A stretch of DNA of 62,592 nt from Gemmatimonadota bacterium (GTDB lineage: Bacteria; Gemmatimonadota; Gemmatimonadetes; Palauibacterales; Palauibacteraceae). Within the stretch, counting starts at the first letter, position 1; every line of letters begins with the position of its first letter. The position numbers and the translations under genes were made by a program. The stretch lies in NCBI GenBank assembly GCA_039587445.1, contig JBDHIM010000012.1, forward strand, positions 1 through 62,592, written 5' to 3'. Positions 17,704-49,965 of the stretch are shown here, piece by piece. The notes beneath the pieces were generated by a model. That model saw only the letters and a list, made by a program, of their open reading frames with translations. It did not search any database and was not told where the DNA came from.

Positions 17704-19425
17704 TCAATACGTCGTCATCGGCTCGCTCGGCAGCAGGACACCGACCTCTTCAACGTAGCGATCCCACAACCCGATCAGCTCGCGGCGGCGGCCGGCGTGC
17801 TCAGCCGACAGGTCTCGGCTTTCCGCCGGATCCTCGGCGAGGTCGAAGAGCTCCCAATCATCGGGACCGAACGGGTCGGTGGTCCAGACGAGCTTCCAGT
17901 CACCCTGGCGGACCGCTCGGCGCCCGAAGAGCTCCCAGCCCATCACGTGGTCGGGCTCGTGGACGCGATCGCTGTTCCCCCTGAGCATGGAGAGCATGGA
18001 GGTCCCTCGCATCGGTTCCACCTCGCGTTCGCGGTAGCGTGAGCCGGGATGGGAGACGCCAGCAAGATCGAGAACGGTCGGGGTCAGATCCATGACCGAG
18101 GCGAAAGCCTCGTACCGCCTTCTCCCGGCCAGATTCTCCGGGTAGCTGGCGAACGCAGGCACGAGAATCCCCCCCTCTGTCGCAAATCCCTTGAAGAGGC
18201 GGGACGGGCCCACGCCAGCGCGCGCCCAGTTCGGCCCGTAGGTGATGTAGGAGTCCGCCCGGCCCATGTTCTGGAGGCTGTTGTCGCAGCACTCCTCGAT
18301 TGCCGGACCGAGCTCCGGCCAATACGCCGCTATGTCGTGCCCTTCGGCACCGTTGTCCGACATGAAGAAGATGAAGGTGTTCTCGTACTCGCCGATCCGC
18401 TTCAGGTAGTCGACGACCCGACCCACGTACAGATCGAGATCGTGGACCATCGCGGCGAAGATCTCCATCCTCCGCGCCTCGATTCGCCGCTCCGCAACCG
18501 CGAGCTCCTCCCACGCCCGCTCACCGGGCAGTCGCGCCGGAGGCTGGACCTCGGCTGCCAAGAGCCCGAGCGATTTCAGCCTCTCGAGCCTTTCCGTCAG
18601 GAGCTCATCGTATCCGCCGTCGTAGGCCCCGGCATGGCGAGCGATCGAAGAATCGGGAGCCTGGAGCGGCCAGTGCGGAGCCGTGAACGCCAGATAGGCG
18701 AAGAACGGCCGCCCATCCCCCCGACCGTGATCGATATAGTCGATCATACGCTCGGCGTAGAAACGCGTGGAGTAGAAATCGTCTGGTAGGGGGGTGACGA
18801 TACCGTCCTCACGGTAGATGGCGCCGGCATGACGCGCCCTGAGGTCCAGGTCGTCAAAATGTCCACCGCCGCCGGGGAGCAACGCGAAGGATCGCTCGAA
18901 ACCGCGGTTGGCGGGGCCGGTCTCCTCCTCGAGCCCGAGATGCCACTTGCCGGTCATGTAGGTGTGATACCCCGCGTCCCGCAGCAGCTCGGCGACCGTC
19001 ACCACCCGGAAGTTGAGATACCCCTCGTATCCGGGCTGGCCCTGCTGGTTGGGGGTTTGCTCTCCGGCCATCGTCCCGAGCCCGGCCAGATGGTGATCCG
19101 TACCGGTCAGAAGCATGGCGCGAGTGGGCGAGCAGGTGGGCGACGCGTAGAAGCGCGTGAAGAGTACGCCCGTTCTCGACAGCGCATCCAGGTTGGGCGT
19201 CCCGATCTCGCCGCCGTAGGCCCCGAGGTCCGTGTAACCCAGATCGTCGGCCACGATAATCAAGATGTTGGGTCGCCCCTCCGGCGAGGGCTCCGAGGAC
19301 CCGCCAGAGCCTCCGGAGGTGTCCGGCACGCAGGCCCCCGGCCAGCAGGCCACGAGGAGCAGCAGCAGGAGCCGCAGCCACGGCCGGTAGCTGTTCCGCC
19401 AGTTGTCCCGCCGGAATCGGGGCAC
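17704..19425 (-). CDS. arylsulfatase (Cys-type, formylglycine-dependent)
   Basis: PNILIIVADDLGY, TCSPTRAMLLTG (CxPxR), GKWHLG, FTAPHWPLQ, SDNG; lipoprotein-like N-terminus. Confidence 0.93.
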   Translation of the reverse strand: MPRFRRDNWRNSYRPWLRLLLLLLVACWPGACVPDTSGGSGGSSEPSPEGRPNILIIVADDLGYTDLGAYGGEIGTPNLDALSRTGVLFTRFYASPTCSPTRAMLLTGTDHHLAGLGTMAGEQTPNQQGQPGYEGYLNFRVVTVAELLRDAGYHTYMTGKWHLGLEEETGPANRGFERSFALLPGGGGHFDDLDLRARHAGAIYREDGIVTPLPDDFYSTRFYAERMIDYIDHGRGDGRPFFAYLAFTAPHWPLQAPDSSIARHAGAYDGGYDELLTERLERLKSLGLLAAEVQPPARLPGERAWEELAVAERRIEARRMEIFAAMVHDLDLYVGRVVDYLKRIGEYENTFIFFMSDNGAEGHDIAAYWPELGPAIEECCDNSLQNMGRADSYITYGPNWARAGVGPSRLFKGFATEGGILVPAFASYPENLAGRRRYEAFASVMDLTPTVLDLAGVSHPGSRYREREVEPMRGTSMLSMLRGNSDRVHEPDHVMGWELFGRRAVRQGDWKLVWTTDPFGPDDWELFDLAEDPAESRDLSAEHAGRRRELIGLWDRYVEEVGVLLPSEPMTTY

Positions 19426-35104: not shown

Positions 35105-35584
35105 TTACGGAAACCGCTTTACCTGCCGATTGTGGCGCCGGATGAGCCACAGCCCCGCGATAATCAGAAACGGTGCCAACGGGACCATGAGCCCTATCAG
35201 GGTGCGGTCGTCGCTGGCTTGCTCTTCGTAGTCGACGATGCGCCGCCCGGCTTGCTCTGCCTGCCAGACTCGTTCACTGCCCAGACCCTTGATGGCCGGC
35301 GCGACCCAAAGCACGATCCCCGCACCTATTGCGATCTCGTCCGGATCGGTCTGACCGAAATTGTAGTCGCGTGAGTCCCCGTCGCGGTGGGCCTGAACGA
35401 CGGTGTGTCGGCAATCGCCGGCCGAGCGTCGGCAAAACTTGATGGGGTCACGCCGGACATCTTCGACGACGCTGACGCGCCGCTTCAGCTCTTCGAAGTC
35501 GGGCACTGGCACCAGCCAGTAGGCGAGCAGAAGAGTGACGCCGATGATGAGTAGCCCGACACCGACGCCTCGTTTCTTGAGCAT
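35105..35584 (-). CDS. hypothetical 2-TM membrane protein with periplasmic Cys pair (159 aa)
   Basis: N- and C-terminal TM helices; FCRRSAGDC; 45 bp downstream of the DUF5916 stop. Confidence 0.7.
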   Translation of the reverse strand: MLKKRGVGVGLLIIGVTLLLAYWLVPVPDFEELKRRVSVVEDVRRDPIKFCRRSAGDCRHTVVQAHRDGDSRDYNFGQTDPDEIAIGAGIVLWVAPAIKGLGSERVWQAEQAGRRIVDYEEQASDDRTLIGLMVPLAPFLIIAGLWLIRRHNRQVKRFP

Positions 35585-35628
35585 TGAAAACGAGGAACGG
35601 GCCACGGTGGATCTTCGCGAACGTACGG

Positions 35629-38481
35629 TCAGAGCGCCAGCCAGTACGTGATCTTGAGGGCGAAGAAGTTCTGGCCCGGTGCCGAGACCGAGTCGAGCAG
35701 GTTGCCGAAGTTCGCCGGATCCGGATCCTGGACCGAGAGGTCGTCGCCTCGGTTCAGCTGCCAGATGAAGAAGAGCGTGCTGCCGGGCAGGTACTCCCAG
35801 CGAACGACGAAGTTGGTGCGGAAGGATAGGGCCACGAAATCGCCGTCGTCGAAGCTGAAGACATCCTCGCCGTCCCGGACCACGATCGTCGCGGGGTCTC
35901 CGGGCTCTTCCGGCGGGAGCTCCTCGATCTCGGTGCCCGCGGTCCCGTAGATCAGCAGGTAGCGGCTGCGGGCGGCGAGCAACTCTCCGTAATCGAAGAA
36001 GCTGCCGGTCTCCACGAACGGCTCCCCGTACCACTCCACGCTCAACTCCGGGGTGATCGCGTAGTTGAGCCGCGTCTGGAGCGAGATCGTCTTCCGGTCC
36101 GTCGTCGCGAACACGTACCGCTCGCCGAACGTCGCCGGGCGACCGTTGTCGAAGGTGTCGACGTACTGCCGGGTGTTGACGAAGCGGCGCCATCTCGGGT
36201 CGAAGGAGAGCTCGAAGGCTTCGGTCGGCTGCAGGGAAATGCCGCCGTTCAGGTGCAGCCTCCAGCCGCCGAGCTCGTCGTTGTAGTAGAAGGTCGACGC
36301 CCGAAACCGCGTTCGTTTGCGGCGGTCGCTGAAGAACCCCGCTCGGGTGTTCCAGCCGAAGCCCTTCCCCATCGAGGGACCGCCGCGGGTGAGGTTGTCG
36401 TCCTGGGCGCGGGTGAGGACCTCTCCACGAAGGAAGCCGCCCCAGAAGCTCTTGAAGGTGGCCTCGCCGAAGAGCTCGAAGAAGGTGAACTGACGGTCCC
36501 CGCCGAAGTTCCAGGCGGCCCCACCGATCGAGTTCAGAGAGTACTCGTGAAACAGCGGACCTGGAGTGTTCTCGCGGTATTGGAGCCTCCCGATCGTTTC
36601 GATCCGGTCGGCCTTGTTCAGCTGCCCGAGGTCGTTGATCTCGAAGCCCGGGGTTTTGAAGCTGCCGCGCACCTCCCACAGCCAGTGCTCACCGTTCTCT
36701 CGCTCGAAGTCGAGTGCGCCGGTAAAGCCCGTGAGCGACGTTCGGGTGGGATCCAGCGTCACGTAGGCCGCATCGGGCCGCTGGTAGTAGCGGGCACTGG
36801 ACTCCTGAACCTCGCGGATCGCCGCGGTGTCCCCTCCCACGTACCCGAATCCGGCGTAGCCCCCCAACTCGTACTCGCCTCCCCCGAGGCGGATATTCCA
36901 ATCGGCTCCCCCGCTGAACGCGTTGCGGGTCATGATCTCTCCAAGGGGATCCTCGGCCGACGCGCCCACATCTCGCGCGACGCCCTGCAGGCTCATCCCC
37001 ACCGTAGAGACGGAGGCGCCGATCTCCTGCTGCAGCCTCATGACCCCCCATCCGGTCAGCGGCTCGACGCGGAAATCCTCCGTGGAGACCGACGCCGAGT
37101 CGAAGACCGTCGCGTACTCGTTGGCGGTGAGCGCTCCCAGGGCGCCGATTGAGAGCCCGGAGTTCAGGCGGCCCGTGATCTTGGCGGCCCCGAGGATGGT
37201 CGTCAGGTCGGCCGCATCCACGAAGTCGCCCTCTGCCTCACCGCCCGGCGGGGCCCCGATCCGGCGCGAGAAATAGTAGCGCGGTCCCCTGCCCCGTAGC
37301 AGCTGGTCGCCTTCGATGAAGAAGGGCCGCCGCTCCGGAAAGAAGACTTCGAACTGCGTGAGGTTCACCACGGCGGGGTCGGCCTCCACCTGCCCGAAAT
37401 CCGGGTTGACGGTGGCGTCCAGGGTCAGGTTGGGACCGAGCCCGGCCTTGACATCGAGGCCGAATCGGGGCTCGACCTTGGTCGCGTCCTCGAACGGATT
37501 GGCCTCGTCCAGCAACTCCTCGCTGGTAAAGGTCGCGTCTGTCGACACGTAGGGTACGATCTCGACGGGCCGGCGCGCATTGACCGCCTGGATACCGGTG
37601 AGGTCTCCGAACCAGGAAGACCAGCCCGACTCGTCCCTCGGGATGGCCACCCAGAAGATGTCCTCGTTCTTCGTGGGTATGTAGCGGTTGACGTTGATCC
37701 CCCACGCCTGCCCCTCGCCAGAACGGAACCGGAGCTGTGAGAAGGGGATCTGCATCTCCGCCGTCCAACCTTCCTCGTCGATCTCGGTCTTGGCCGTCCA
37801 GACGGGGTCGAAGGATCGGTCGCGCGAGAAGGCGCGATCGCCGGGATGATACCAGTCCAGCCGCACGCCGGCCGCGGTCACGGCGAAGCTGTAGGCCGTC
37901 CGCCGGTCCTGGTAGCCGTCGAGCGAGACGATCAGGCGCTCCGAGTTCCCGTCGCTGTCGCGGCGTGTCATCACGGCCCGGATGGCCTCGGGGTCCTCGC
38001 TGTACATCCGGGCGCCCACGTAGAGGTTCTTGCCGTCGTAAGCGAACGCCACCTCCGTACGTTCCGTGGGGGGCGCGCCCTCGACCGGCTCCCGCTGCAC
38101 GAAGTCCGAGCTGAAGGTCGCCGAGCCCCACACCTCGTCGTCCAGCCGGCCGTCAACCTTGATCGACGCTTCGGGCGGGATCCGGTAGGCCTGCATCGCC
38201 TTGCTCACGCAAGCGGCGCCCTCGGTCCGCCGGCACGGCAGCAAGGCCGCCGACTCGCCGGTGAGCTCATCCGTGATCGTGTCGGAGCGGGCGATCGGAG
38301 GCCCATCGGGAATCGTGTCCGTCGCCGCCGCCTGGGCTCGGGCCTCGGAAGAGAGCGAGATGAGCACGAGGAGGAGGGCGCAGGCTGCCGACACGCCGGC
38401 CCACGGCAGGCCACTACCGTGACCCCCCTGGTTCGAAACGATTGGCGAGCCCTTAGCCGGTCGCCGTGCCACCCGTCCCAT
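35629..38481 (-). CDS. DUF5916-like outer-membrane protein (CBM9-like N-domain plus beta-barrel)
   Basis: IKVDGRLDDEVW, FVQREP, AYDGKNLY, NPDFGQVEADP, FPERRPFF, SRRIG; C-terminal LKITYWL strand. Start uncertain. Confidence 0.85.
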   Translation of the reverse strand: MGRVARRPAKGSPIVSNQGGHGSGLPWAGVSAACALLLVLISLSSEARAQAAATDTIPDGPPIARSDTITDELTGESAALLPCRRTEGAACVSKAMQAYRIPPEASIKVDGRLDDEVWGSATFSSDFVQREPVEGAPPTERTEVAFAYDGKNLYVGARMYSEDPEAIRAVMTRRDSDGNSERLIVSLDGYQDRRTAYSFAVTAAGVRLDWYHPGDRAFSRDRSFDPVWTAKTEIDEEGWTAEMQIPFSQLRFRSGEGQAWGINVNRYIPTKNEDIFWVAIPRDESGWSSWFGDLTGIQAVNARRPVEIVPYVSTDATFTSEELLDEANPFEDATKVEPRFGLDVKAGLGPNLTLDATVNPDFGQVEADPAVVNLTQFEVFFPERRPFFIEGDQLLRGRGPRYYFSRRIGAPPGGEAEGDFVDAADLTTILGAAKITGRLNSGLSIGALGALTANEYATVFDSASVSTEDFRVEPLTGWGVMRLQQEIGASVSTVGMSLQGVARDVGASAEDPLGEIMTRNAFSGGADWNIRLGGGEYELGGYAGFGYVGGDTAAIREVQESSARYYQRPDAAYVTLDPTRTSLTGFTGALDFERENGEHWLWEVRGSFKTPGFEINDLGQLNKADRIETIGRLQYRENTPGPLFHEYSLNSIGGAAWNFGGDRQFTFFELFGEATFKSFWGGFLRGEVLTRAQDDNLTRGGPSMGKGFGWNTRAGFFSDRRKRTRFRASTFYYNDELGGWRLHLNGGISLQPTEAFELSFDPRWRRFVNTRQYVDTFDNGRPATFGERYVFATTDRKTISLQTRLNYAITPELSVEWYGEPFVETGSFFDYGELLAARSRYLLIYGTAGTEIEELPPEEPGDPATIVVRDGEDVFSFDDGDFVALSFRTNFVVRWEYLPGSTLFFIWQLNRGDDLSVQDPDPANFGNLLDSVSAPGQNFFALKITYWLAL

Positions 38482-38574
38482 CCGTGTTTGTGGGTGCTAC
38501 GGTGTTCGTGAGTGCTATCGCTGTTATCAGCGAGGATCTTCTACCCGCAAAGTGAGCGTGGTGCCGCGATGCCA

Positions 38575-41500
38575 TCAGCCGCTCCTCGCGACCAGGTACC
38601 GATAGGCGACGGGTATCGCGACCAACACGAACAGCGTCGAGGAGAGAAGGCCGCCGATGGTCGCCAGGGCCAGGGCGTTCCAAATGTTGGCGTCCTGCGA
38701 GCCGGAGAACAGCACCAGCGGTAGGAGGCCGAATACCGTGGTGAACGTGGTCATCAGAATCGGCCGCACGCGCTCCAGCGTTCCCTGCAGGATCGCCGCT
38801 CTCGTTTCCATCCACTCCCTCAGCTCACCGATGTGGTAGACGACGAGAATCGCGTTGTTCACCACGATCCCCGACATCATGATCGTTCCGATGTAGGCGG
38901 TTCGCGTGAAGGTGGCGTTCGTGTAGAAGAAGATCAGGAAAACACCGATCAGGGCCAACGGCAACGTCAGCAAGACCACGAGAGGCGCCGCGAGCGACTC
39001 GAACAGCCCCGCGGTCAACATGTAGATCAGTAGAACAGCCAGAATGAGCGCGAGGTAGACCTGTTGGCGCTCCTCCTCGGGCCATCTCCACTCATCTTGA
39101 ATCTCGAACCGATATCCGGGCGGAAGCTCTGTCGATTCGACCACCCGGTCCTGGATCAGGTCACCGAGTTTCGACGGGCCCCGATACTCCCACGTCACCG
39201 TCCGCTCGTACTGCTGGTTCTTTCTTCGGATGTTCGCCATGACGTCCCGCGCCCCGACAGAGGCCACGTCCGCGAGCCGCACCTCTCCGTCACCCAGAGT
39301 CGGCACCCTGAGGTTCTCGAGGTCACGGATGTCGAGCTCCCGGTATCCCGCCAGCTTGATGGCATACCTCACCTCCTCTCCCTCGAGGCGGAGCCGATCC
39401 GCCGAGAGCACCCCGCGGGCGCTGGCCGCCACGTAGCCGAGAAGCTCCTCCACGGTCAGGTCGAACGAAGCCAGGGCGGCTCGGTCCGGCACGACGACCA
39501 GCTCCGTCTCTCGATCTCGTTCGAACCAACCTCCGCTCGCGTTCGGATTGGGGTTGCGGACCCTTGGAAAGCGGCCGATCCGTGCAGAGATATCTTCTGC
39601 TATCTCCTTCACGGTCAGATAGTTGAAGCCAAACACTTGAAGCGCATACGTAGGAGCGGAGCCACCGCCGCCGTAGAAACTCGGTCCGAAGCCAAGAACC
39701 TGCACTTCGGCGCCCGAGAATCCGAAGCTGTAGGCCGCCAGCTGATCCTTGACGGCGACCGGCACGCCCGTTCGCTCGAGCTCCAGGGGGAAGGTGACGC
39801 GTATTCTGGCATAGCCTGGTCGAACCAGTGCCTCGTACCGCTTCACCTCCGGCAGCGTGGCGAGGCGGCCCTCGAACGAACGCGCCAGCTCATCGGTTCG
39901 CTCCAGCTCGGCCCCACGCGGAAAGCGGATGTTGACGACGATGTAGGTGTCCTGACCGAAGGCGGAGGACCAGAGAAGGCCGCGGTCCACGTGCCGGTCG
40001 AAGAGCCAGAAGCTTCCGGCCAGACAGGCGACGCTGATGAGACCCACGAGCACGGGGTGATCGAGCGCCCGTGAGAGCAGAGCCCGGTACGCCCGCACGT
40101 AGGCCGGTTCGAGCCCGGGTCGGTCGGGGCCTGGTGGGTGCCGGACGCCCCTTGTCGCGGGCGTCGCCCGCCGCCGGCCGAAGGATCGCCCGGCGGTCAT
40201 GGCCGGCACGAATGTGAAGGCCACGAACAGGCTGGCGAGGATCGAGAAACCAACGGCATAGGCGAGCGGCAGATAGTAGATCCTGAGATCCCCCTGCAGG
40301 AGCAGAAAGGGCGCCAGCACAATCCCCGTGGTCCCCGTCGCCGCCAGAACGGGCAGGAGCACCTGCCGCGCTCCGTCGCGCGAGGCATCCACCCGACCCT
40401 TTCCCTGCCCCATGTGGCGCTCGACGTTCTCGAGCACGACGATGCCGTTGTCCACGACGAGGCCGAAGCCCCACGCCAGGCCGGCCAGGGTCAGCACGTT
40501 GAGAGAGAAGCCGCCCATGTAGAGGAGATTCACGGCGATCAACACGCTGAAGCCGATCGTCGCGAACACGATCGCCACCGCCCGCGTCGAGCGCAGGAAT
40601 GCCATCAGTACGAGGAAGATGACGAGTGCGGCCGCCATCGCCCGCAGCCGCAGGTCCGTCAGCTGCTCCCGGATCTCCTCGCTCTGATCCGAGTCGAGAT
40701 CGAGCGTGAGGCCGGGCGGCAGGGCCTCTTCGATCTTCCCGATCTCCGCCTTCACCGCCTCCGCCGTTTCGACGGCGTTCGAGCGCGACCCCCGGGTGAT
40801 GACGAGCCAGATCGCCGGCCGGCCGTCGATACGCGTGTACTCGTAGGGATCGGCATGCCCATCTCGCACCCGCCCGAGATCCGAGAGCCGTACAGGCCCC
40901 TCCGGACGCGTGGCCACGATGAGTCGGCCGAGCTCCCTCACGTCCGTGGGCCGGGACCGGATGGCCAGGGCGACACGCATGCCGTCCAGCTCGACAGAGC
41001 CCGGGGCCCGGAGCTCCGACGAACGGGCCACGAGCCTCTGGACCTCGCCCAGCGTTAGCCCCAACGCGCTCATGCGCTGCGCGTCCAGCTCGATCGACAC
41101 CTCTCGCTCCTCGCCGCCGTACAGCCAGACGGCGTCGACGCCCTCCATCCCGAGGAGGCGGGGCCGAACCTCTTCGTTCGCGACCCTAGTGAGGAATCCC
41201 TCGTCGTATGGGCCCGTCAGGCGGTAGGAGAGAAACGGACGGCCCCCGTCGGCGAACTCATCGGGCACGTACGGTTCGACGACGGTGGTGGCACCTTCCG
41301 GCAACTCATCGCGCAGCGCCGACACGCGCTCGCTCAGCTCCAGGCGGGCGAACTCCATACGGGTCTTTCGGCCGAATTCGACGTCCACCTCGGCCGTCGA
41401 GCCGGTGCCGAACAGGTCGATTCGCGAGACCGACTCCACGGATCTCACCCCGCGAACCTGCCGTGCCTCCGCCTCGATGCGGACCGTGACCAGCGACTCG

Positions 41501-41670
41501 AGCGCCTCGGGAGAGGCGCCGGGCCACTCGGCCCGCACCCTCAGCCGTGGATAGGAGACATCTGGAAGGAGCTCCAGCGGGATCAGGCGAAACGCATACA
41601 GACCCAGGAGCAGGAGAGCGAGGTAGATCGCCGCCGTCGCGACGGGGCGCCGGATCGCCATTCCGATCAT
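38575..41670 (-). CDS. RND efflux permease subunit 2 (AcrB/MdtC-like)
   Basis: AIRRPVA, LELLPDVSYP, GLVVDNGIVVLEN, GIVVNNAIL, RVRPILMTT. Confidence 0.95.
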   Translation of the reverse strand: MIGMAIRRPVATAAIYLALLLLGLYAFRLIPLELLPDVSYPRLRVRAEWPGASPEALESLVTVRIEAEARQVRGVRSVESVSRIDLFGTGSTAEVDVEFGRKTRMEFARLELSERVSALRDELPEGATTVVEPYVPDEFADGGRPFLSYRLTGPYDEGFLTRVANEEVRPRLLGMEGVDAVWLYGGEEREVSIELDAQRMSALGLTLGEVQRLVARSSELRAPGSVELDGMRVALAIRSRPTDVRELGRLIVATRPEGPVRLSDLGRVRDGHADPYEYTRIDGRPAIWLVITRGSRSNAVETAEAVKAEIGKIEEALPPGLTLDLDSDQSEEIREQLTDLRLRAMAAALVIFLVLMAFLRSTRAVAIVFATIGFSVLIAVNLLYMGGFSLNVLTLAGLAWGFGLVVDNGIVVLENVERHMGQGKGRVDASRDGARQVLLPVLAATGTTGIVLAPFLLLQGDLRIYYLPLAYAVGFSILASLFVAFTFVPAMTAGRSFGRRRATPATRGVRHPPGPDRPGLEPAYVRAYRALLSRALDHPVLVGLISVACLAGSFWLFDRHVDRGLLWSSAFGQDTYIVVNIRFPRGAELERTDELARSFEGRLATLPEVKRYEALVRPGYARIRVTFPLELERTGVPVAVKDQLAAYSFGFSGAEVQVLGFGPSFYGGGGSAPTYALQVFGFNYLTVKEIAEDISARIGRFPRVRNPNPNASGGWFERDRETELVVVPDRAALASFDLTVEELLGYVAASARGVLSADRLRLEGEEVRYAIKLAGYRELDIRDLENLRVPTLGDGEVRLADVASVGARDVMANIRRKNQQYERTVTWEYRGPSKLGDLIQDRVVESTELPPGYRFEIQDEWRWPEEERQQVYLALILAVLLIYMLTAGLFESLAAPLVVLLTLPLALIGVFLIFFYTNATFTRTAYIGTIMMSGIVVNNAILVVYHIGELREWMETRAAILQGTLERVRPILMTTFTTVFGLLPLVLFSGSQDANIWNALALATIGGLLSSTLFVLVAIPVAYRYLVARSG

Positions 41671-44600
41671 GGGATGTCGCCCAGCTGTTCACCACCGGCC
41701 GCGACGAGCGAATAGACCACCGGCACCACGATGAGCGTCAGGAAAGTCGCGGAGATGAGGCCGCCGATGACGACGACCGCGAGAGGAGAGCGGAGATCCG
41801 CGCCGGCGCCCCAACCGAGGGCGAGCGGGATGAGACCGAGCACCGTGGTCGCGGTCGTCATCAGGATGGGCCTCAGGCGCAGCCGTCCGGCCTCGGCGAT
41901 CGCTTCCTTCAACGCGAGTCCACCTCGTCGTCGCTGGTTGATGAAGTCGACTTTGACGATCGCGTCGTTCACCACGATCCCTATCAGAATGACCAGCCCG
42001 ATACCGCTCATCAGATTGATGCCACCTCCCGTGAGCCAGAGGGCTGGTACCGCGCCCACGGCCGCGAGCGGGACCGCCACCAGGACGACGACCGGCTGCA
42101 GAAGAGACTCGAACTGAGCGGCGAGGATGAGGTAGACCAGAAAGAGGGCAAGCCCGAAGGCGAAAAAGAGGGAGCGGAAGCTCGCGCGCATCTCCTCGTT
42201 CTCTCCGCCAACAGCCAGGGTGGTTCGCGGCGGTCGAGGCATCCCCTCGAGTCGCGCCTCGGCATGGCTGACCGCCTCGGTCAGTCCGGCACCCGCCACC
42301 TCCGCGAGCACCTGCACCGTTCGGCTCTGGTCCTCGCGGAGGATCTCGACGGGACCATAGCCCTGGCGAACCCGAACGACCTCGCTCAAGGGCACGTCGC
42401 TCAGCCGCAAGGCCAGAACGTCGGGAAGCCGCTGTCTCGCCTCTTTCGGCAGCTGAACCCTGATCTCGAGTTTTTCGGAGAACTCCGTGAACGGCTCGGA
42501 GGTGGGCAGCCCGCGCAAATAGGATTCGATGGTGCTCGCCACATCGTAGACGCTGAGGCCGTATCTGGCGGCGCGGTCCCGGTCGACCTCGATCTCCAGC
42601 TCCGGTTGACCCAGCTGCATGCCGACGCGGACGTCCCGGAGCTGTGGCAATCCCACCAGCCGAGCCTTGGCTGACTCGGCCACCGCGACCAGATCAGCCA
42701 GCTCATCCCCCTGGATTCGCACGGCCAGGTCGGCTTCGTCCAGGTCCAGCGTCCGGCCCAGCGCGGTCGAGCGTCCGGTCTCGATCGCCACCGCTCCCGG
42801 ATCGATGCCCGTTCGCGCAAGGCGAGACCGGAAGTCGGAAACGACCCGTGACGTGGGCTCACCCGTCGGACGCAAGCGGACCTCGAGAACCGCACTGTTC
42901 AGGCCCGCCAGCTCGTCCTCGGTGGGCTCGCCCCGCTGAGCGCGGCCGACCCGGGTGAAGACGCCGTCGACCGCCTCCAGCTCGAGAAGCACTGCCTCCA
43001 GCGCCGCCGCCGCCTCATCGGTCGCCTCGATCGGCGTACCCACGGGCAGGTCCAATGCGACGCGGAACTGGCGCTCGTCCACATCCGGCATCAGGTCGCG
43101 GGGAAGGACCGTGGCCAGGGAGATGGCCGCGGCGAACACGGATGCCGCCAGACCGATGACGGCGGACCGGTGGCCCAGCGCCCAGGCGAGAGCCCCCTCG
43201 TAGCGGCCGGCGAAACCGCGGAAGCCGCGGTCGAAGGCCTCGAGCGCCGGCCCCGTGAGGCGGGAGAACGCGTGGCCAATCCCTCCCGTCACCTCCCTCC
43301 AGGTGAGGCGGACGGACTCCCTCGTGAAGCGCAGGGCACGCCGCAGCGGGCGAGTCTTCTTTTCGTCGGCCGTCCGCGCGGCCACATCGTGGGCCGCATC
43401 GTGGGTCTCGTCGCTGGTGGCTGCCGCCACCCCCGCCCTTCCGAACCGGGCCGCCATCACGGGCAGTAGTGTCAACGCGACGAGCAGCGAGGCCAGGAGC
43501 GAGAAGGCGACGGCAAGCGACAGATCGCCGAACAGGGCGCCCGCGACCCCCCGCACGTAGAGCACCGGCCCGAAGACGGCGATGGTCGTGAGCGTAGAGG
43601 CCGTGATCGCGCCGGCCACCTCCCTGCTTCCTTCGGCCGCGGAGTGCGCGGCCGCATCGCGCGGTTCGACCGCCTCGCCGGGCCCTGGAGCCGGCGCGGT
43701 CACCTCACCCTCGTTCCGGTGCCGGAAGACGTTCTCCAGCACGACGATCGAGTTGTCGACGAGCATTCCCACACCCAGGGCGAGACCACCCAGGGACATC
43801 ACGTTCAGGCTGACGTCGAACAGATAACAGAGTGAGAACGCCGCCAGGATGGAGATCGGGATCGCCAGGCCCACGGCCACGGGATAACGGGGATCCCGAA
43901 GAAAAAGGAAGAGCACCAGGAAGGCGAGAATTCCTCCCACGATCAACGCCTGCACGACGTTGGCGATGGCCTCTCGGATGAACTCCGCCTGACTCGTCGC
44001 GATCTCGAAGCCCAGCGACGGGAACTCCGCCCTCAACTCGTCGAGCACCACCTCGACACGTTCAGCCACCCGGACGGTGTTGGAGCCCGATTCCTTGAAG
44101 ATCTGCAATCCCACCGCCGGCACGCCGCTGTACCGCGCCGCTGTCTGTCTCTCCGCGAATCCGTCCCGCACCTCGGCCACATCTGACAGCCGCACCGGTG
44201 TTCCCCCGGTCGGCCTCGCCACGACGACGTCCCGTAGCTGCTCCACCTCCGTGAACTGGCCGAGGGTGCGGAGACTGTAGCGGAATCTGCCGCGCCTCAC
44301 GCTCCCTCCCGGCGCCTGATAGTTGGCCCGGTCGAGTGCGTCGGTCACCTGGGCGACGGTCACCCTGTACAACGTCAGCCGGGCTGGATCCAGAAGCACC
44401 TGGATCTCCCGCTCCCGTCCGCCGCTGATCGCGGCGAGAGCGACTCCGTCCTGCTGCTCGAGACGCCTGGCGAAGACGTCCTTGCTCAGCTCCAACAGCT
44501 CCGCGGGGCTCGCGCCGGATACGGCAAGCGTGAGGATCGGGTCGCTGCCCGGGTCGGAGCGGAGGATGACGGGACGATCCACGCTGCGAGGAAGTATATC

Positions 44601-44948
44601 TCGAAGATCATCGAGCCGTTCCCGCACGTTCAGCGCGGCGAATTCCATGTCCGTGCCCCAATAGAACTGGAGCGTCACGAGGGACTGTCCTTCACGTGAG
44701 CGAGACGTCACTCGCCTGACACCGGGAACCTGGCTGACCTCCTGCTCGACCGGCTCCGTGATGAAGCGCTCCACCTCGGGAGGTGCCGCATCGCTGTAGG
44801 TGGTCCACACCGAGAGCGTGGGGAACGCCACGTCCGGAAGGAGGTCGATGGGGAGACGGGCAAACGAGAGGACGCCCAACACGGAGATGCCAAGATAGAC
44901 CATCGCCGTAGCGATCGGCCGTCGAATGCTTAGATCTGGAAGGCTCAC
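41667..44948 (-). CDS. RND efflux permease subunit 1 (AcrB/MdtB-like)
   Basis: SIRRPIA, PIDLLPDV, GMLVDNSIVVLEN, GIVVNDAIV, RLRPILMTT; GTG 44948 chosen from the typical N-terminus. Confidence 0.95.
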   Translation of the reverse strand: MSLPDLSIRRPIATAMVYLGISVLGVLSFARLPIDLLPDVAFPTLSVWTTYSDAAPPEVERFITEPVEQEVSQVPGVRRVTSRSREGQSLVTLQFYWGTDMEFAALNVRERLDDLRDILPRSVDRPVILRSDPGSDPILTLAVSGASPAELLELSKDVFARRLEQQDGVALAAISGGREREIQVLLDPARLTLYRVTVAQVTDALDRANYQAPGGSVRRGRFRYSLRTLGQFTEVEQLRDVVVARPTGGTPVRLSDVAEVRDGFAERQTAARYSGVPAVGLQIFKESGSNTVRVAERVEVVLDELRAEFPSLGFEIATSQAEFIREAIANVVQALIVGGILAFLVLFLFLRDPRYPVAVGLAIPISILAAFSLCYLFDVSLNVMSLGGLALGVGMLVDNSIVVLENVFRHRNEGEVTAPAPGPGEAVEPRDAAAHSAAEGSREVAGAITASTLTTIAVFGPVLYVRGVAGALFGDLSLAVAFSLLASLLVALTLLPVMAARFGRAGVAAATSDETHDAAHDVAARTADEKKTRPLRRALRFTRESVRLTWREVTGGIGHAFSRLTGPALEAFDRGFRGFAGRYEGALAWALGHRSAVIGLAASVFAAAISLATVLPRDLMPDVDERQFRVALDLPVGTPIEATDEAAAALEAVLLELEAVDGVFTRVGRAQRGEPTEDELAGLNSAVLEVRLRPTGEPTSRVVSDFRSRLARTGIDPGAVAIETGRSTALGRTLDLDEADLAVRIQGDELADLVAVAESAKARLVGLPQLRDVRVGMQLGQPELEIEVDRDRAARYGLSVYDVASTIESYLRGLPTSEPFTEFSEKLEIRVQLPKEARQRLPDVLALRLSDVPLSEVVRVRQGYGPVEILREDQSRTVQVLAEVAGAGLTEAVSHAEARLEGMPRPPRTTLAVGGENEEMRASFRSLFFAFGLALFLVYLILAAQFESLLQPVVVLVAVPLAAVGAVPALWLTGGGINLMSGIGLVILIGIVVNDAIVKVDFINQRRRGGLALKEAIAEAGRLRLRPILMTTATTVLGLIPLALGWGAGADLRSPLAVVVIGGLISATFLTLIVVPVVYSLVAAGGEQLGDIP

Positions 44949-44994
44949 GCGAGGATCGGTTGGGGCCGCGCGCCGGACGGCGCACTGGCCGGTC

Positions 44995-46185
44995 TCACCG
45001 GTCCAGGAGCGCTCTGTGGTTCTCCAGGTGGACCCTGGCGTCATGCGTCAGCGTCGTGTGGCCATCCACGAGCACGATCGAACCGGGCTCCAGGCTATCG
45101 CCATCCCGCTCCGGCGTAACCTCCACGAAGCCATCGTTCTCGAGGCCGGTGCGAACGTACACCCACTTGGCAAAGCCCGTGGCGCCGCCGGGCTCGTCAG
45201 GATGCAGGAGGAAGACCACGTCCCGCTTGTCTCGCTCCACGATCGCATCTCGCGCCACGAAAAGGCGGTCGGCGAATCGACGCCCGGCGATCTCGACCTC
45301 GGCGAACATGCCCGGGAGAACCTTGGCCTGAGGGTTTCGAAGACGCACCGCGACCCGGGCCGTTCCGGTCTCGTGGTTGACCATCGGATTGACGGTCTCC
45401 ACCTGTCCCTCGAACGGCTCCTCCGGCAGTGCGGCGAACCGGACCGTCGCGACTCGCCCCGGTTCGACGGCCGGCAGCGCGCGCTCCAGAACCTCGACCT
45501 CGACGTCGACAGTCGAGAGGTCGACGACTTCGACGACGGCATCGCCCACCTGAAGGCGCGCCCCCTCATCCACGACGAGATCGGCGACGCGCCCAGCGAA
45601 GGGAGCGCGGATCTCCGTTCGCTCCAGCTGGTACATGGCCTCCTCCAGCGCCGCCTCCGCTCCCGGTATCCCGCTTCTGAGCCTCGCCAGACGTTCCCGC
45701 TTCGCACGAAGCTGCGCGTCCTCCAATCGGTCGTCCCCGAGAATCAGCCCCTCGAACTCGGCCTGCGCGTACGCCAGGTCCGCCTCGGCGCGCCGCACCC
45801 GAAGCTCGTACTCCGCGGGGTCGATCCGGACCAGCATCTGTCCCTTTGAAACCCGCGCGCCCTCCTGGACGGGCACGGAGATCACGGGGCCCGATACCTC
45901 CGCCTGCAGTGGCGCCGAGCGCAGCGGTGCCGCCCGACCCTGCGCCTCTACCCAGAGAACGAAAGTATCGCGCCGGACCATCGCGCCTTCCACCGGCAGG
46001 GCGATCTCGGTAGGAAACGCCTCGACGGCGGATGCGCCGAGCGCCTCGTTCAGCGAATCGGCGGGCACGGCATCATCGCCGGCTCGGTCGCTGGCCCCCG
46101 CTTCGTTGAGACGCCACAACACGCCCGCCAGGAGCACCAGTGGTACTCCGACGACGAGTAGCGTTAGCAGATGTCGGGGTTTCAT
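44995..46185 (-). CDS. RND periplasmic adaptor (membrane fusion protein)
   Basis: N-terminal TM; AEVSGPV...V.EG..V.KGQ.L..ID, IRAPFAGRV, PGMFAEV, VRTGL. Confidence 0.95.
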   Translation of the reverse strand: MKPRHLLTLLVVGVPLVLLAGVLWRLNEAGASDRAGDDAVPADSLNEALGASAVEAFPTEIALPVEGAMVRRDTFVLWVEAQGRAAPLRSAPLQAEVSGPVISVPVQEGARVSKGQMLVRIDPAEYELRVRRAEADLAYAQAEFEGLILGDDRLEDAQLRAKRERLARLRSGIPGAEAALEEAMYQLERTEIRAPFAGRVADLVVDEGARLQVGDAVVEVVDLSTVDVEVEVLERALPAVEPGRVATVRFAALPEEPFEGQVETVNPMVNHETGTARVAVRLRNPQAKVLPGMFAEVEIAGRRFADRLFVARDAIVERDKRDVVFLLHPDEPGGATGFAKWVYVRTGLENDGFVEVTPERDGDSLEPGSIVLVDGHTTLTHDARVHLENHRALLDR

Positions 46186-46275
46186 CGCGTGTCGCTCTTA
46201 GCGTACCGCTTCAGATGTGGAGGATCGAGCTCGCCTGGCACCCGCGCGCGACTCGCTCTCGGATCACCTTTCGGA

Positions 46276-46752
46276 TCACCCTGTAGACAGCCGCCCTCCG
46301 GTTCGCGTTGCCCTCGAGAAACCGTCCCGCGATCGCATCCGCGCTCTCCGAAAGAACAGGTAGGCCAGACAGCCCAGGAGGAAGGTCCAAGGCAGCTGCA
46401 GGCTGGCGTCCCGGGCTTCGACCTGCCAGGCGCCTCTCGCGGATCGTTCTTCTTTTCGCACTGCAAGATAGAACGGTGTCCGAAGCGTAGACCAGCGGGT
46501 GTCGACGGGTCGTTGATAGGAGGACGCCTCGGACTCTCCCGGGATCTCCGGGCTCCCGCCGATCGGCACGCCGAGCAGGCCGCCAAGAAAGGACGACACG
46601 AGGATGGCCGGCCAGACCCAGCGCGCGGAAACTGCCGGTCCGGCCTTCTGGCTTCCCGCGCCCGGAAGTCGTCGCGCGTCCGCGATCATCCAGACGAGGA
46701 TCAAGATGGCTAGTACGGAGAGGGAGATCCCTGCGGCATCGATCCAGTTCAT
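46276..46752 (-). CDS. hypothetical 3-TM membrane protein (158 aa)
   Basis: Three hydrophobic segments; ATGA overlap with the upstream propeller gene. Confidence 0.7.
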   Translation of the reverse strand: MNWIDAAGISLSVLAILILVWMIADARRLPGAGSQKAGPAVSARWVWPAILVSSFLGGLLGVPIGGSPEIPGESEASSYQRPVDTRWSTLRTPFYLAVRKEERSARGAWQVEARDASLQLPWTFLLGCLAYLFFRRARMRSRDGFSRATRTGGRLSTG

Positions 46753-47807
46753 GGTGTTCGCTCCTTTCGGGGTCGCCAGGCGACCAGGGTCGGGTATGGG
46801 CGCTCATGCAGGGCGTAGACGAGCCCGTCAGCGTATACGGCGTGACGGGGCCGGATCGGCAGACGCAGGCTCTCCACGTAGGAGCCATCGTCCAGGGAGT
46901 AGACATCCATGACCCGATGGCGGTCGGACGAGTTGCCGCCGAAAAAGACATAGACACGGCCGCGAGAGAGCGAGACGGTCTCGGCGGCGAAGACCACGCC
47001 GGTGAGCCAGGAGGCTCGCTCCCTGCGACCGAGACTGAATCGACCCCTCTGTGCGACTCGGGGAAACTCCACCCGTTCGATGTACCGGCCTCGATATCCG
47101 AGCCAGCTGGTGGAGAGAAAGGCGAAGAAGCCGTCGCCGAGCCCGTAGGCCCCCACCCATCCTCCCTCCGTCGGATCGTGGCCGACGACGAGCTGGGAGG
47201 CCAGCGGATGCAGTCGCTCGTGTTCCGGCGATGGGAACGAAACGCGTTCGAGGACCTGGCCGCTGGGCGACAGCCGGACGATCGGCCGATCGGCCTCGAA
47301 CGTCAGGAGGATCACGCCGCCACCCTCCTCCGGAACGATTCCATCCGCGGTCCGTCCCACCGCCGAGAGCGGGATCCGGCCGTCGGAGGCTCCGTGCTCG
47401 TCGATTAGGGTGACGCGGCCGTTCGCGACATCCAGCACCCAGGTTCTCCCCTGGCGATCCATATGGATGTCGCGGGGATGAGTGAACTCCTCCGGTCCTT
47501 TGCCCTTACGGCCGAAGCTCCAGAGAAGACGTCCGTGGCTATCAAACCGAAGGACGCGACCGGCTTCACGGTCGAGGACCGATACGCCGGCCCCGTCCGC
47601 GGCGAGTCGGGTCGGTAGCTGGAGCAGCGTGTCCTGAGGGCCACCTACGACGAACGCCGTGTCCCACGCGATGACCGCCCATCGACGGCCCCGGGGCTCG
47701 GCCCGTCGGCCCCGATCGGCATCCTCCCGGTCGGGGACGCAACCGTTCGACAGGCACAGCGCTGCCAAGGCGACACCGCACCTCATCGGCATGCTGGCTG
47801 CCGTCAT
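46749..47807 (-). CDS. 6-bladed beta-propeller (NHL-like) lipoprotein
   Basis: Lipobox LSNGC; blades LLQLPTRLAAD...RVLRFDSHGRLLWSFGRKGKGPEEFTHPRDI; ATGA overlaps at both ends. Confidence 0.85.
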   Translation of the reverse strand: MTAASMPMRCGVALAALCLSNGCVPDREDADRGRRAEPRGRRWAVIAWDTAFVVGGPQDTLLQLPTRLAADGAGVSVLDREAGRVLRFDSHGRLLWSFGRKGKGPEEFTHPRDIHMDRQGRTWVLDVANGRVTLIDEHGASDGRIPLSAVGRTADGIVPEEGGGVILLTFEADRPIVRLSPSGQVLERVSFPSPEHERLHPLASQLVVGHDPTEGGWVGAYGLGDGFFAFLSTSWLGYRGRYIERVEFPRVAQRGRFSLGRRERASWLTGVVFAAETVSLSRGRVYVFFGGNSSDRHRVMDVYSLDDGSYVESLRLPIRPRHAVYADGLVYALHERPYPTLVAWRPRKERTP

Positions 47808-48313
47808 CCCACCGCCCCGGCGACTCGTCGCGCGTACTGTTCGATGAGCCGGCCGGCCTCCCGCTGCAGGCTCGCGTCCGACACCGGCGGAAGGATCAGA
47901 AGAGGACGGCCAGCCGCGTCCAGTAGGACGCTCGTCGGCGTCCGGCTCTGCCCTGCCCTGGCGAGCAGCCGTTCCGCGACCCGACCGAGGTCGTATCGCA
48001 CGGGGAACGTCGGCCCGTGCTCACCAAGAATCGAGTCCCGGGCGGAGGGCGTCGGCGGGAAACCGATCCCAACCCCGAGCACATCCACATGGCCTCGCTC
48101 GGCCAGGGCGTTCCAACGCTCCACCAATCCCCCGTACCGGCGACAATCCTCCGGCTGGAACAGCAACACCAGCGTCGGGCGTTCGACGCCCTCGATGGCG
48201 GCATGCGGAGCCGAAAGGGCGCGATACTCGCCGAAGCGCACCGCCGACAGGGCCGTCAGGAGCGCGGCCGCCGAGAACAGCAGACGCGCTCCCGTGAAGC
48301 GGGGGCCGCTCAG
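47804..48313 (-). CDS. membrane-anchored thioredoxin-fold (TlpA-like) protein with a single active-site Cys
   Basis: LVLLFQPEDCRRY, VDVLGVG and cis-Pro loop TPTSVLLD..G. The N-terminal TM anchor lies upstream of the first GTG (48241), so CTG 48313 is proposed as the start. Confidence 0.7.
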   Translation of the reverse strand: MSGPRFTGARLLFSAAALLTALSAVRFGEYRALSAPHAAIEGVERPTLVLLFQPEDCRRYGGLVERWNALAERGHVDVLGVGIGFPPTPSARDSILGEHGPTFPVRYDLGRVAERLLARAGQSRTPTSVLLDAAGRPLLILPPVSDASLQREAGRLIEQYARRVAGAVG

Positions 48314-48627
48314 CTGCAGCGCCTGGGCTCCCAGCCGATGTAGTCCTCACCCCATCGGCAGCCACCGTCGCCCGGCTCTTCCAGCCACGGGTCGTCAGCT
48401 CCTCCGCCCGAACCGGCCGCCGGGAAGTACTTGTACGTGGTCGTGCACTGTTTGTAGAACAGCATCTCCACGCAGGACTCGTTCTCCCAGCACACCTTGC
48501 CGGTGTTCGAGCCGTTACAGGTCGCGGCCGCCGCCTGCGGCTGGCCGGGGACGGCGAGATAGAGACCCGCCGCCGCCAGGAGGGACAGGGCGCTCGCGTA
48601 GAGCCGCGAGCGATTCGGATTGCGCAT
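48310..48627 (-). CDS. small secreted 6-Cys peptide precursor (105 aa)
   Basis: AGGAG RBS; Sec signal ending QAAA; mature ATCNGSNTGKVCWENESCVEMLFYKQCTTTYKYFP...GCRWGEDYIGWEPRRCS. Confidence 0.8.
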   Translation of the reverse strand: MRNPNRSRLYASALSLLAAAGLYLAVPGQPQAAAATCNGSNTGKVCWENESCVEMLFYKQCTTTYKYFPAAGSGGGADDPWLEEPGDGGCRWGEDYIGWEPRRCS

Positions 48628-48728: not shown

Positions 48729-49841
48729 TCAGGCGGGGATGTGGTAGAAGGCGAGCGCCAGGATGACGTAGACGGCGATGAGCTGCACGCCCTCCATCCA
48801 GTGGGTCTGGCCGTCATCGGAAACCTGGCCGATGATCAGCACCGAGAGCGCTACGGCCATCACCTCCATGGCGGTAAAGTGGAGATCCATCGGGGCGGGA
48901 CCGATCGCGTAGCTCAGGAAGACGATCAGCGGCGCCACGAAAAGCGCGATCTGGATGGAGGAGCCGATCGCGATGTGGACGGCCAGGTCCATCTTGTTCT
49001 TGAGCGCCATCAGCACGGCCGTCGAGTGCTCGGCCGCGTTGCCGACCAGGGCGATTACGATGACGCCGAGGAAGACCTCGGTCATGCCGAGCGCTTCCCC
49101 GGCCTCGTGCACACCACCCACGAGCAGCTCGCTCATCCACGCCACCAGCGCCGCCGTTCCGACCAGCACCAGGAGGGCCTTCCCCTTCGACCACTGCGGT
49201 CCCACGACCTCCTCGACCGCCTCGGCGGTCTCGGGATCTACCTCCGAAGGCACGACCCCCGTGTACAGCCGGCTATGCGTCTTGAGCGTGAAGACGAGGC
49301 TGAGGATGTAGGTCGCCATGAGGACGACCGAGATCTCCAGGCTCAGCGTGCGCTCTACCCCGGCCGAGCTGCCTGACGAGAGGCCGTGGAAGATGGCTGG
49401 GACGACCAGCCCCACGGCGCTCAACAGCAGAAGCGTGGCTCCCATGCTGGCGGCAATCCGGTTGAACGTCTGGGTGTGATACTTGAGGCCGCCGAGGAAG
49501 GCGCTGAGGCCAAAAACGATGAGCGTGTTGCCAATGATCGAGCCGGTGATCGACGCCTTGACGAGATCGTGGAGCCCGGCGTTCAACGCGATGAGCGCGA
49601 TGATGAGCTCGGCCGCATTCCCGAACGTCGCGTTCAGCAGGCCGCTGACCCCGGCTCCGTAGTGTCCCGCCAGCTTCTCGGTGGCCAGCCCGAGGATCCC
49701 CGCCAGTGGGATGATGGTCAACGCGGAAGTGATGAAGATCGCGGTCCCGCCGGCATGGACGGCGTACTCCAGAACGAGCGAGACAGGGAGGAAGATCAGC
49801 AGTAGATAGAGGATGTTCTGACCGCTCAGGCGCGCCGTCAC
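48729..49841 (-). CDS. calcium/proton exchanger (CAX/ChaA family)
   Basis: [41 protein letters not shown]. Confidence 0.95.
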
Positions 49842-49894
49842 GTCCGAGTTCCCGAGGGCTGGGAGGAGGGAGCGTGGGCGCTTGGATGCATAAG

Positions 49895-49965
49895 AGGCGC
49901 CGTCCGGATTCGAACCGGAGTACGGGGCTTTGCAGGCCCCTGCCTAACCACTCGGCCACGGCGCC
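49895..49965 (-). tRNA. tRNA-Cys(GCA)
   Basis: GGCGCCGTGGCCGAGTGGTTAGGCAGGGGCCTGCAAAGCCCCGTACTCCGGTTCGAATCCGGACGGCGCCT; U73; CCA not encoded. Confidence 0.97.

Follow-up and report, generated by a model that had tools for sequence, protein, structure and literature searches.

The locus described here, which lies at positions 35105-48627 of a 62,592-nucleotide stretch of DNA (hereafter the window), is on balance best read as a genus-specific juxtaposition of three units, namely a four-gene cassette, an RND efflux pump and a protein of the DUF5916 family. The window is contig C215 of the metagenome-assembled genome (MAG) G000 (89% complete, 3.19 Mb), from a genus of uncultured marine Gemmatimonadales. 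The cassette encodes a small Cys-rich secreted protein (the peptide), a one-Cys thioredoxin (Trx)-like protein, an NHL beta-propeller lipoprotein and a protein with three transmembrane (TM) segments. The original prediction, made from the sequence of the window alone, had joined all nine genes of the locus into one dedicated pathway, folding the peptide and delivering it across the outer membrane. As will be seen, the novelty lies in the four-gene cassette and in its 4-Cys protein family, and not in a new export machine. The genes, from the leading one onwards, are the following:

48310-48627, minus strand: peptide, a secreted mini-protein of 105 aa, with an AAGGAG ribosome-binding site (RBS) and an ATG start
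47804-48313, minus strand: Trx-like protein, membrane-anchored and facing the periplasm, with a TlpA-like fold (AlphaFold2, AF2, and Foldseek)
46749-47807, minus strand: six-bladed NHL beta-propeller with a signal peptide and a lipobox-like Cys (LSNGC), matching Pfam DUF5128 and NHL domains in the PDB
46276-46752, minus strand: small inner-membrane protein with three TM segments (3-TM protein), conserved, with no Pfam or NCBIfam match
44995-46185, minus strand: periplasmic adaptor (membrane fusion protein, MFP), matching TIGR01730 (E 2e-55) and HlyD_D23
41667-45044, minus strand: MdtB/MdtC-like permease RND1, matching ACR_tran (E 3.6e-247), with coordinates of the longest open reading frame (ORF) and a true start probably downstream of 45044
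38575-41670, minus strand: permease RND2, matching ACR_tran (E 1.3e-162), with a 4-nt overlap with RND1
35629-38481, minus strand: DUF5916 protein with a weak CBM9-like N-terminal domain, matching PF19313 (E 5.8e-56)
35105-35584, minus strand: protein with two TM segments (2-TM protein, from the ORF listing) and a periplasmic domain of about 115 aa bearing an F-C-RRSAGD-C loop

The shared orientation of the nine genes is borne out by both the ORF listing and the sequence, and the strong RBS attributed to the leading precursor is indeed present (AAGGAG, 8 nt ahead of the ATG). Three of the four overlaps that had been proposed are 4-nt overlaps of the ATGA type (47804-47807, 46749-46752 and 41667-41670), while the fourth (48310-48313) holds only if the Trx-like gene starts with a CTG at 48313. 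The gaps measure 90 nt between the 3-TM and MFP genes, 93 nt between RND2 and the DUF5916 gene, and 44 nt between the latter and the 2-TM gene. Promoter and terminator scans from 34.5 to 50.2 kb returned sites no more numerous than in shuffled sequence, and a scan with Rfam found no regulatory RNA. The families or folds that had been predicted for the MFP, the RND pair, the DUF5916 protein, the NHL propeller and the Trx-like protein were all recovered (using Pfam, NCBIfam, PDB searches and AF2 with Foldseek), and the peptide and the Trx-like, 3-TM and 2-TM proteins have no match in Pfam or NCBIfam. The ratio of nonsynonymous to synonymous substitution rates (dN/dS) was computed for the seven genes other than RND1 and RND2, and purifying selection acts on all of them (peptide 0.22-0.33; Trx-like 0.12-0.37; propeller 0.11-0.29; 3-TM 0.34-0.58; 2-TM 0.38; DUF5916 0.16-0.26; MFP 0.12).

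Distribution of the nine genes

All 12 genomes of the window's genus have the peptide gene and the Trx-like gene. Eight of the nine genes (without the 2-TM gene) occur in order in G000, in G011, in G005 (on two contigs) and on the metagenome contig L058, and in four further genomes (G006, G007, G010 and G008) the first three genes are followed by the end of the contig. The 2-TM gene was confirmed only in G000 and in G011, where its orthologue (79% identical) also lies behind the DUF5916 gene. Another arrangement is found in G002, G003, G009 and the metagenome contig L056, which carry tRNA-Cys (where sequenced), a Na/Ca exchanger gene and then the peptide, Trx-like, 3-TM and DUF5916 genes. These four loci have no propeller, no 2-TM gene was found in them, and the genomes of G002, G003 and G009 contain no orthologue of the RND trio anywhere. 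Since the four form one clade (support 100/99, in a tree built from the peptide, Trx-like and 3-TM proteins), it follows that both the pump and the propeller disappeared in a single lineage, with the rest retained.

Beyond the window's genus, at least five others, from two Gemmatimonadota families, have the cassette by itself. In the window's own family, G305 and G463 carry the peptide, Trx-like, propeller and 3-TM genes as a stand-alone cassette. In G450, the first three of these are found, the 3-TM gene is not detected and no pump or DUF5916 gene lies nearby, and G013 has all four genes, the 3-TM gene being the last on its short contig. In another family (f6; G398, G359, G361, G275 and G323), the peptide gene is followed by a one-Cys Trx-like gene (QEGDCPDRR) and then by a gene for a fusion of the 3-TM protein and the propeller (480-490 aa), and in G244 a propeller gene is followed by two peptide genes. 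Flanks of several kb were available for eight of these loci (all cassette loci outside the genus except those of G013, G359 and G445), and none of the eight has an RND or DUF5916 match beyond the cassette. The Trx-like gene always adjoins the peptide gene, and separate Trx-like and propeller genes are the rule in all loci examined. The claim that the 6-Cys protein, the one-Cys Trx-like protein and the propeller make up a dedicated conserved unit is therefore upheld, since they co-recur across two families, and the unit is an uncatalogued one. Throughout the phylum, the peptide family was found in 16 of 401 genomes (9 of the 147 genera sampled; 6 of 20 genera within the window's family), and the distribution of the Trx-like protein is as narrow.

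The pump has a different history. It consists of an adaptor and two distinct permeases (TIGR01730 and two ACR_tran proteins, the latter about 30% identical to each other and with RND_permease_2, MdtB and MdtC as best NCBIfam matches), as do MdtABC-TolC of E. coli and MuxABC-OpmB of Pseudomonas. MFP orthologues occur throughout the order, RND1 orthologues in other genera are 54-65% identical to that of the window, and RND2 is essentially single-copy in 32 of 41 related genomes (52-66% identity through the family and order), being absent from G002, G003 and G009 and not detected in G010 (74% complete). In the eight relatives for which the operon was fetched, the order is MFP, a gene of about 1.4 kb, RND1 and RND2, and this inserted gene encodes a TolC-type OEP protein (PF02321, E 1e-52), that is, the outer-membrane factor (OMF). 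Its orthologue is found on the same contigs as the pump in 13 of the 13 other sampled genera of the family, and on pump contigs in most genomes of the sister family. In none of these fetched relatives does a cassette gene accompany the pump. The pump is thus, judging from its sequence relationships, an ordinary heteromeric efflux pump of the MdtABC/MuxABC type distributed over the order, and the earlier view that it is not a generic drug pump is not supported, as the RND pair belongs to an order-wide MFP-OMF-RND1-RND2 operon that lacks the cassette. The RND pair was also expected to keep company with the Cys-rich ORF, the Trx-like gene and the propeller in other genomes; inside the genus it does so, but outside the genus it occurs without them.

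In contrast to MdtABC and MuxABC, the pump of the window's genus has had its OMF gene deleted between MFP and RND1. None of the 12 genomes of the genus has the cognate OMF (only an OMF of another pump, about 30% identical, is kept), so the loss of the pump's own TolC-type gene is documented genus-wide. Many RND pumps borrow an OMF. This pump probably does likewise with one of the two other OMFs encoded in G000, at C56 and C15, given that the MFP alpha-hairpin is equal in length and similar in sequence to those of OMF-carrying relatives and that the DUF5916 protein survives where the pump does not. The same unchanged hairpin, together with this survival, disfavours the substitution of TolC by the DUF5916 protein, a candidate that we considered and set aside: the DUF5916 protein does not appear to be the RND outer-membrane factor.

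The third unit belongs clearly to the Pfam family DUF5916 (PF19313, often found with CBM9_1), with a score of 190.9 bits against a cutoff of 22.6, and presumably forms a barrel in the outer membrane. Numerous paralogues exist across the order, yet the orthologues of the window's protein (74-90% identity) occur only in the window's genus, the nearest paralogue (G000:C151, 52% identical) being shared with other genera. The genus-specific protein is also extended at its N-terminus, where it bears an invariant P-C-RRT[EQ]G-xx-C loop. The mature protein has no Cys other than those of this loop, which is missing from the C151 paralogue. No match to its sequence was found in the PDB, and our literature search returned no publication mentioning DUF5916; the present locus is one of few specific genomic associations for this large family.

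Some minor observations concern this protein and its neighbour. A similar Cys-loop motif occurs in the 2-TM protein (FCRRSAGDCRHTVVQAHR, 35400-35440) and in the N-terminal extension of the DUF5916 protein (PCRRTEGAACVSKAMQAYR, 38210-38240), these proteins being otherwise unrelated. The gene of the family-wide paralogue (C151:42881-45568) is preceded by one for a membrane protein of 468 aa (G000:C151:45624-47030). In the single-contig genome G009, the DUF5916 gene is apparently split into pieces 1.6 Mb apart (L009, G009:C1 at about 7000, and L024), joined to unrelated ORFs (a metalloenzyme and a pyridine-nucleotide oxidoreductase); a real split was rejected, because the break coincides with a run of N and is likely an assembly or masking artefact.

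These distributions bear directly on whether the nine genes form one export pathway. A version of the original prediction limited to this genus would assign the folding of the peptide to the Trx-like protein and the propeller, and its transfer across the outer membrane to the TolC-less pump and the DUF5916 protein. It would account for the tight nine-gene order conserved in several lineages of the genus and for the genus-wide loss of the cognate TolC-type gene, with a genus-specific DUF5916 gene 93 nt behind RND2, and the extra C-terminal loop of the peptide (described below) is likewise specific to the genus. Nevertheless, the clade that has no RND trio maintains its peptide, Trx-like, 3-TM and DUF5916 genes under selection, the MFP hairpin has kept the length seen in TolC-using relatives, two other OMFs are at hand in G000, and cassettes of other families have no RND pump or DUF5916 gene beside them. 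Moreover, a folded protein of 7 kDa exported by Sec is an unusual RND substrate. We regard such a nine-gene pathway as quite unlikely. Export through the pump and the DUF5916 protein is thus not supported, and neither is the inclusion of both as integral parts of one pathway, because outside the genus the cassette and the pump each occur alone, and the pump-less clade, which also lacks the propeller, keeps DUF5916 with the other three cassette genes. More generally, tightly packed, overlapping and co-oriented genes in one genome suggested a greater functional unity than is supported by comparative genomics, which splits the locus into three units.

A second alternative leaves the pump as a mere neighbour and makes the mini-protein an accessory subunit (a lid, plug or tether) of the DUF5916 barrel, the C-terminal loop of the peptide docking on the N-terminal Cys loop of the barrel, or exchanging disulfides with it, with the assistance of the Trx-like protein. 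Both loops are restricted to the genus, and the mature barrel has no Cys outside its loop. Where the pump and propeller have been lost, the DUF5916 gene still adjoins those for the peptide and the Trx-like and 3-TM proteins. However, these features co-occur in one evolutionary instance only, a deletion would leave the remaining genes side by side in any case, and the 4-Cys core family occurs elsewhere without DUF5916, so that we consider the proposal unlikely.

Proteins of the cassette

In the peptide, a Sec-type signal is followed by a 4-Cys domain (C-x8-C-x5-C-x8-C-TT-x-Y-x-Y-[FYW]), a Gly/acidic linker and a C-terminal C-x13-C loop. Among 5.8 billion proteins, 33 homologues were found, each of about 105 aa, and all six Cys are invariant (in 16 homologues), as are the aromatic residues beside them. 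A profile search of 1.84 billion cluster representatives uncovered a wider family of about 50 clusters, the members of which are mostly 64-95 aa long and consist of the signal peptide and the first four Cys only (C-x7/8-C-x5-C-x8-C-TT-x-Y-x-Y-[YW]). Among the searched reference genomes the C-x13-C loop is confined to the window's genus, and a few near-relatives in the metagenome set also have it. A member-by-member Pfam scan of the family (E up to 1) gave nothing recurrent, the profile search of the PDB gave chance-level matches only, and the AF2 model built from 16 sequences (pLDDT 47, pTM 0.19) was too poor for a fold search. By these sequence comparisons the 4-Cys secreted mini-proteins are an uncatalogued family. 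As the original prediction had stated, no enzymes for ribosomally synthesized and post-translationally modified peptides are present: no maturase domain was found in the nine genes or their immediate neighbours, and the precursor has a Sec-type signal. Additional copies of the peptide gene were seen in several genomes, namely a tandem pair of about 50% identity ahead of the Trx-like gene in G323 (L051, C2:3825-4085 and about 4290-4470), and unlinked copies in G013 (C23) and G361 (C12).

The start of the Trx-like gene required closer attention. In the window, no ATG, GTG or TTG lies in its frame 5' of the conserved membrane helix; the first of these codons is a GTG at 48241, already within the helix, and an ATG located upstream meets a TGA two codons on. 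At the stop of the peptide gene, the junction reads CTGA in the window and five relatives, TTGA in G001 and G008, GTGA in G013 and TGATG in G009, so that a start-stop overlap of the NTGA or TGATG type is found in 10 of the 11 lineages examined; in G005, the gene has its own RBS and a start 12 nt downstream of the peptide stop. Considering the missing alternatives 5' of the helix and the junctions of the relatives, the gene probably starts at CTG 48313, overlapping the TGA of the peptide, with its translation coupled to termination of the latter.

In the AF2 model of the Trx-like protein (from 14 homologues), a TM helix (model residues 20-41) is followed by a Trx domain of order beta-alpha-beta-alpha-beta-alpha-beta-beta-alpha, with pLDDT above 80 over most of its length (about 80-87). 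Foldseek matched this model to ResA, CcmG/DsbE, TlpA, DsbF and DipZ (E 5e-6, probability 1.0), placing it in the TlpA/ResA type of Trx fold. With TlpA, ResA and CcmG/DsbE it shares the N-terminal anchor, the Trx fold with extra elements, a cis-Pro loop (RTPTS, with T136-P137 invariant ahead of strand 3) and a Cys at the start of helix 1. This sole Cys is invariant (FQPEDCRRY) and occupies the position of the CxxC nucleophile. Unlike those proteins, which have CxxC, the cassette protein reads C-R-R-Y (C-P-D-R in family f6), with Tyr (Arg in f6) at the place of the second Cys. The likeness is one of predicted structure, since no match to the TlpA class was found at the sequence level in Pfam, NCBIfam or the PDB (chance-level matches only in a PDB profile search; nothing recurrent in a member-by-member Pfam scan at E up to 1). 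Although a CxxY site is able to react with disulfides or to trap thiols, it cannot resolve the adduct by itself, which points to an isomerase-, holdase- or retention-type chemistry, proceeding by mixed disulfides only, and does not fit a full oxidoreductase.

The propeller scores above the cutoff against Pfam DUF5128, a six-bladed propeller (28.3 bits), and matches NHL domains of the PDB down to E 4.6e-18 (phmmer), which places it among the six-bladed NHL propellers. Its orthologues (31-46% identity) adjoin 4-Cys peptide genes in two families; the literature on DUF5128 or NVEALA yielded nothing useful. The 3-TM protein is conserved in the window's genus, G013 and G305/G463, and has a conserved loop of about 50 aa (R.PFY…LQLPW) between TM2 and TM3. 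In family f6, the entire 3-TM protein forms the N-terminal part of a fusion in which a fourth, lipobox-like TM segment leads into the propeller, and this Rosetta-stone evidence suggests that the two proteins work together. Taken together with the positive-inside rule, the fusion would also place the TM2-TM3 loop in the periplasm.

Three observations on particular propeller and 3-TM genes can be added here. In G011 (L012, C74, about 11659-12063), most of TM3 is missing from the 3-TM orthologue owing to an internal deletion, and the propeller has no lipobox Cys, which may reflect local decay or an assembly error in the MAG. A different propeller, weakly DUF5128-like (E 9e-4) and with no detectable similarity to that of the window, is located directly downstream of RND2 in another genus (L017, G019:C1, 14256-15260). 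Finally, in G244 (L055, C172, about 18500-19130, minus strand), a redoxin/peroxiredoxin-like ORF (VVLVFYRGHW*PYC) lies about 1 kb upstream of the gene for the NHL propeller lipoprotein, which is followed by the two 4-Cys peptide genes; it has an in-frame TGA at the first Cys of its WCxxC, which may encode selenocysteine.

The combination of these four proteins recalls the mau cluster, in which a small subunit (MauA), a propeller (MauB), a Trx-like protein (MauD) and a membrane protein (MauE) are encoded, all of them periplasmic or membrane-bound. According to this comparison, the cassette would specify an enzyme like methylamine dehydrogenase, the propeller being the large subunit, the Cys-rich protein the small cofactor subunit, and the Trx-like and membrane proteins the maturation factors (MauD-like and MauE-like). 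The gene content has the same four parts and the aromatics next to Cys in the small protein are invariant, but no component is homologous at the family level: no match to MauA, MauB, MauD or MauE was obtained in Pfam or NCBIfam, and the propeller is a six-bladed NHL and not a seven-bladed one. Additionally, no MauG-type haem enzyme lies nearby, the peptide gene is in tandem in G323 and G244 and has extra copies in G013 and G361, and the propeller is dispensable in one clade. Such an enzyme is, in our judgement, very unlikely.

A working model of the locus

The closest parallel for the cassette is of a different kind. NHLRC2 (animals and some bacteria) and SOQ1 (plants) combine a TlpA-like Trx domain with a six-bladed NHL propeller, the same domain types as found here. 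In these proteins, an atypical Trx site faces the NHL propeller across a conserved cleft and classical reductase activity is absent (PMC6107167; bioRxiv 10.1101/2021.03.16.435614), and SOQ1 acts in the plant thylakoid lumen on a small soluble protein (bioRxiv 10.1101/2021.03.16.435614). The differences are equally clear. NHLRC2 and SOQ1 are single polypeptides with the motif CC(I/V)NC (PMC6107167), whereas the cassette has separate genes and the motif DCRRY, and the fusion seen in f6 joins the 3-TM protein to the propeller instead. Bacterial NHLRC2 homologues have no conserved gene neighbours (PMC6107167), whereas the cassette encodes the small Cys-rich and 3-TM proteins in cis. NHLRC2 is not among the PDB matches of the propeller, and no specific sequence similarity was found. 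Because of the separate genes, the missing CC(I/V)NC and this lack of specific similarity, the cassette does not belong to the NHLRC2/SOQ1 family, and our claim is that it works like these proteins, not that it is one of them.

By this analogy, the cassette most likely functions as a Trx-like/NHL pair that is split, tethered to the membrane and active on a small secreted client of its own. The peptide would be exported by Sec and fold into a small protein with two or three disulfides. The Trx-like protein, translated by re-initiation at the peptide stop and tethered to the inner membrane by one helix, would present its single nucleophilic Cys (C-R-R-Y) beside an intact cis-Pro groove and form mixed disulfides with the client. 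The propeller lipoprotein and the 3-TM protein may provide a membrane-tethered binding platform, and these parts together would handle the small protein in the manner proposed for NHLRC2 and SOQ1 with their clients. As for the other two units, MFP-RND1-RND2 would have lost its operon-encoded TolC-type factor in this genus and borrow a remaining OMF, and the DUF5916 paralogue (with the 2-TM protein in some species) would be a lineage-specific outer-membrane protein, which may have become a partner or client of the cassette.

Some of our results weigh against a division into three units, or against the analogy used for the first of them. The nine genes are tightly packed and co-oriented, with an order kept in at least four divergent lineages of the genus, which makes co-transcription, and some functional link between the units, plausible. 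A new joint function could also lie behind three changes specific to the genus, namely the loss of the TolC-type gene, the gain of the C-terminal Cys loop of the peptide and the gain of a DUF5916 paralogue that has a Cys loop too. The parallel with NHLRC2/SOQ1 is architectural only, and the peptide model is poor. In a further reading, the cassette would be a split machine of the NHLRC2/SOQ1 type with its client encoded alongside, and in the window's genus the processed client would be passed on to a dedicated DUF5916 barrel, to be displayed or released with or without help from the TolC-less pump. We hold this to be unlikely, yet if true it would provide the first Trx-NHL pair with a genetically defined substrate, and DUF5916 would gain its first assigned cargo.

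In mammals, Trx-like/NHL proteins are indispensable (NHLRC2, FINCA disease), and in plants they control photoprotection (SOQ1). A compact operon that pairs a one-Cys TlpA-like protein and an NHL propeller with their apparent client would be an easy system in which to trap a mixed disulfide and to establish the task of such pairs.

Besides the nine genes, the sole Rfam match in the scanned region is tRNA-Cys (GCA; 49894-49965, minus strand), the only one found in this 89%-complete genome. It sits just upstream of, and in the same orientation as, the Na/Ca-exchanger gene (48729-49841) and the peptide cluster. The order of tRNA-Cys, exchanger and peptide is not conserved in other genera and is conserved in G009, G003 and the metagenome contig L056.

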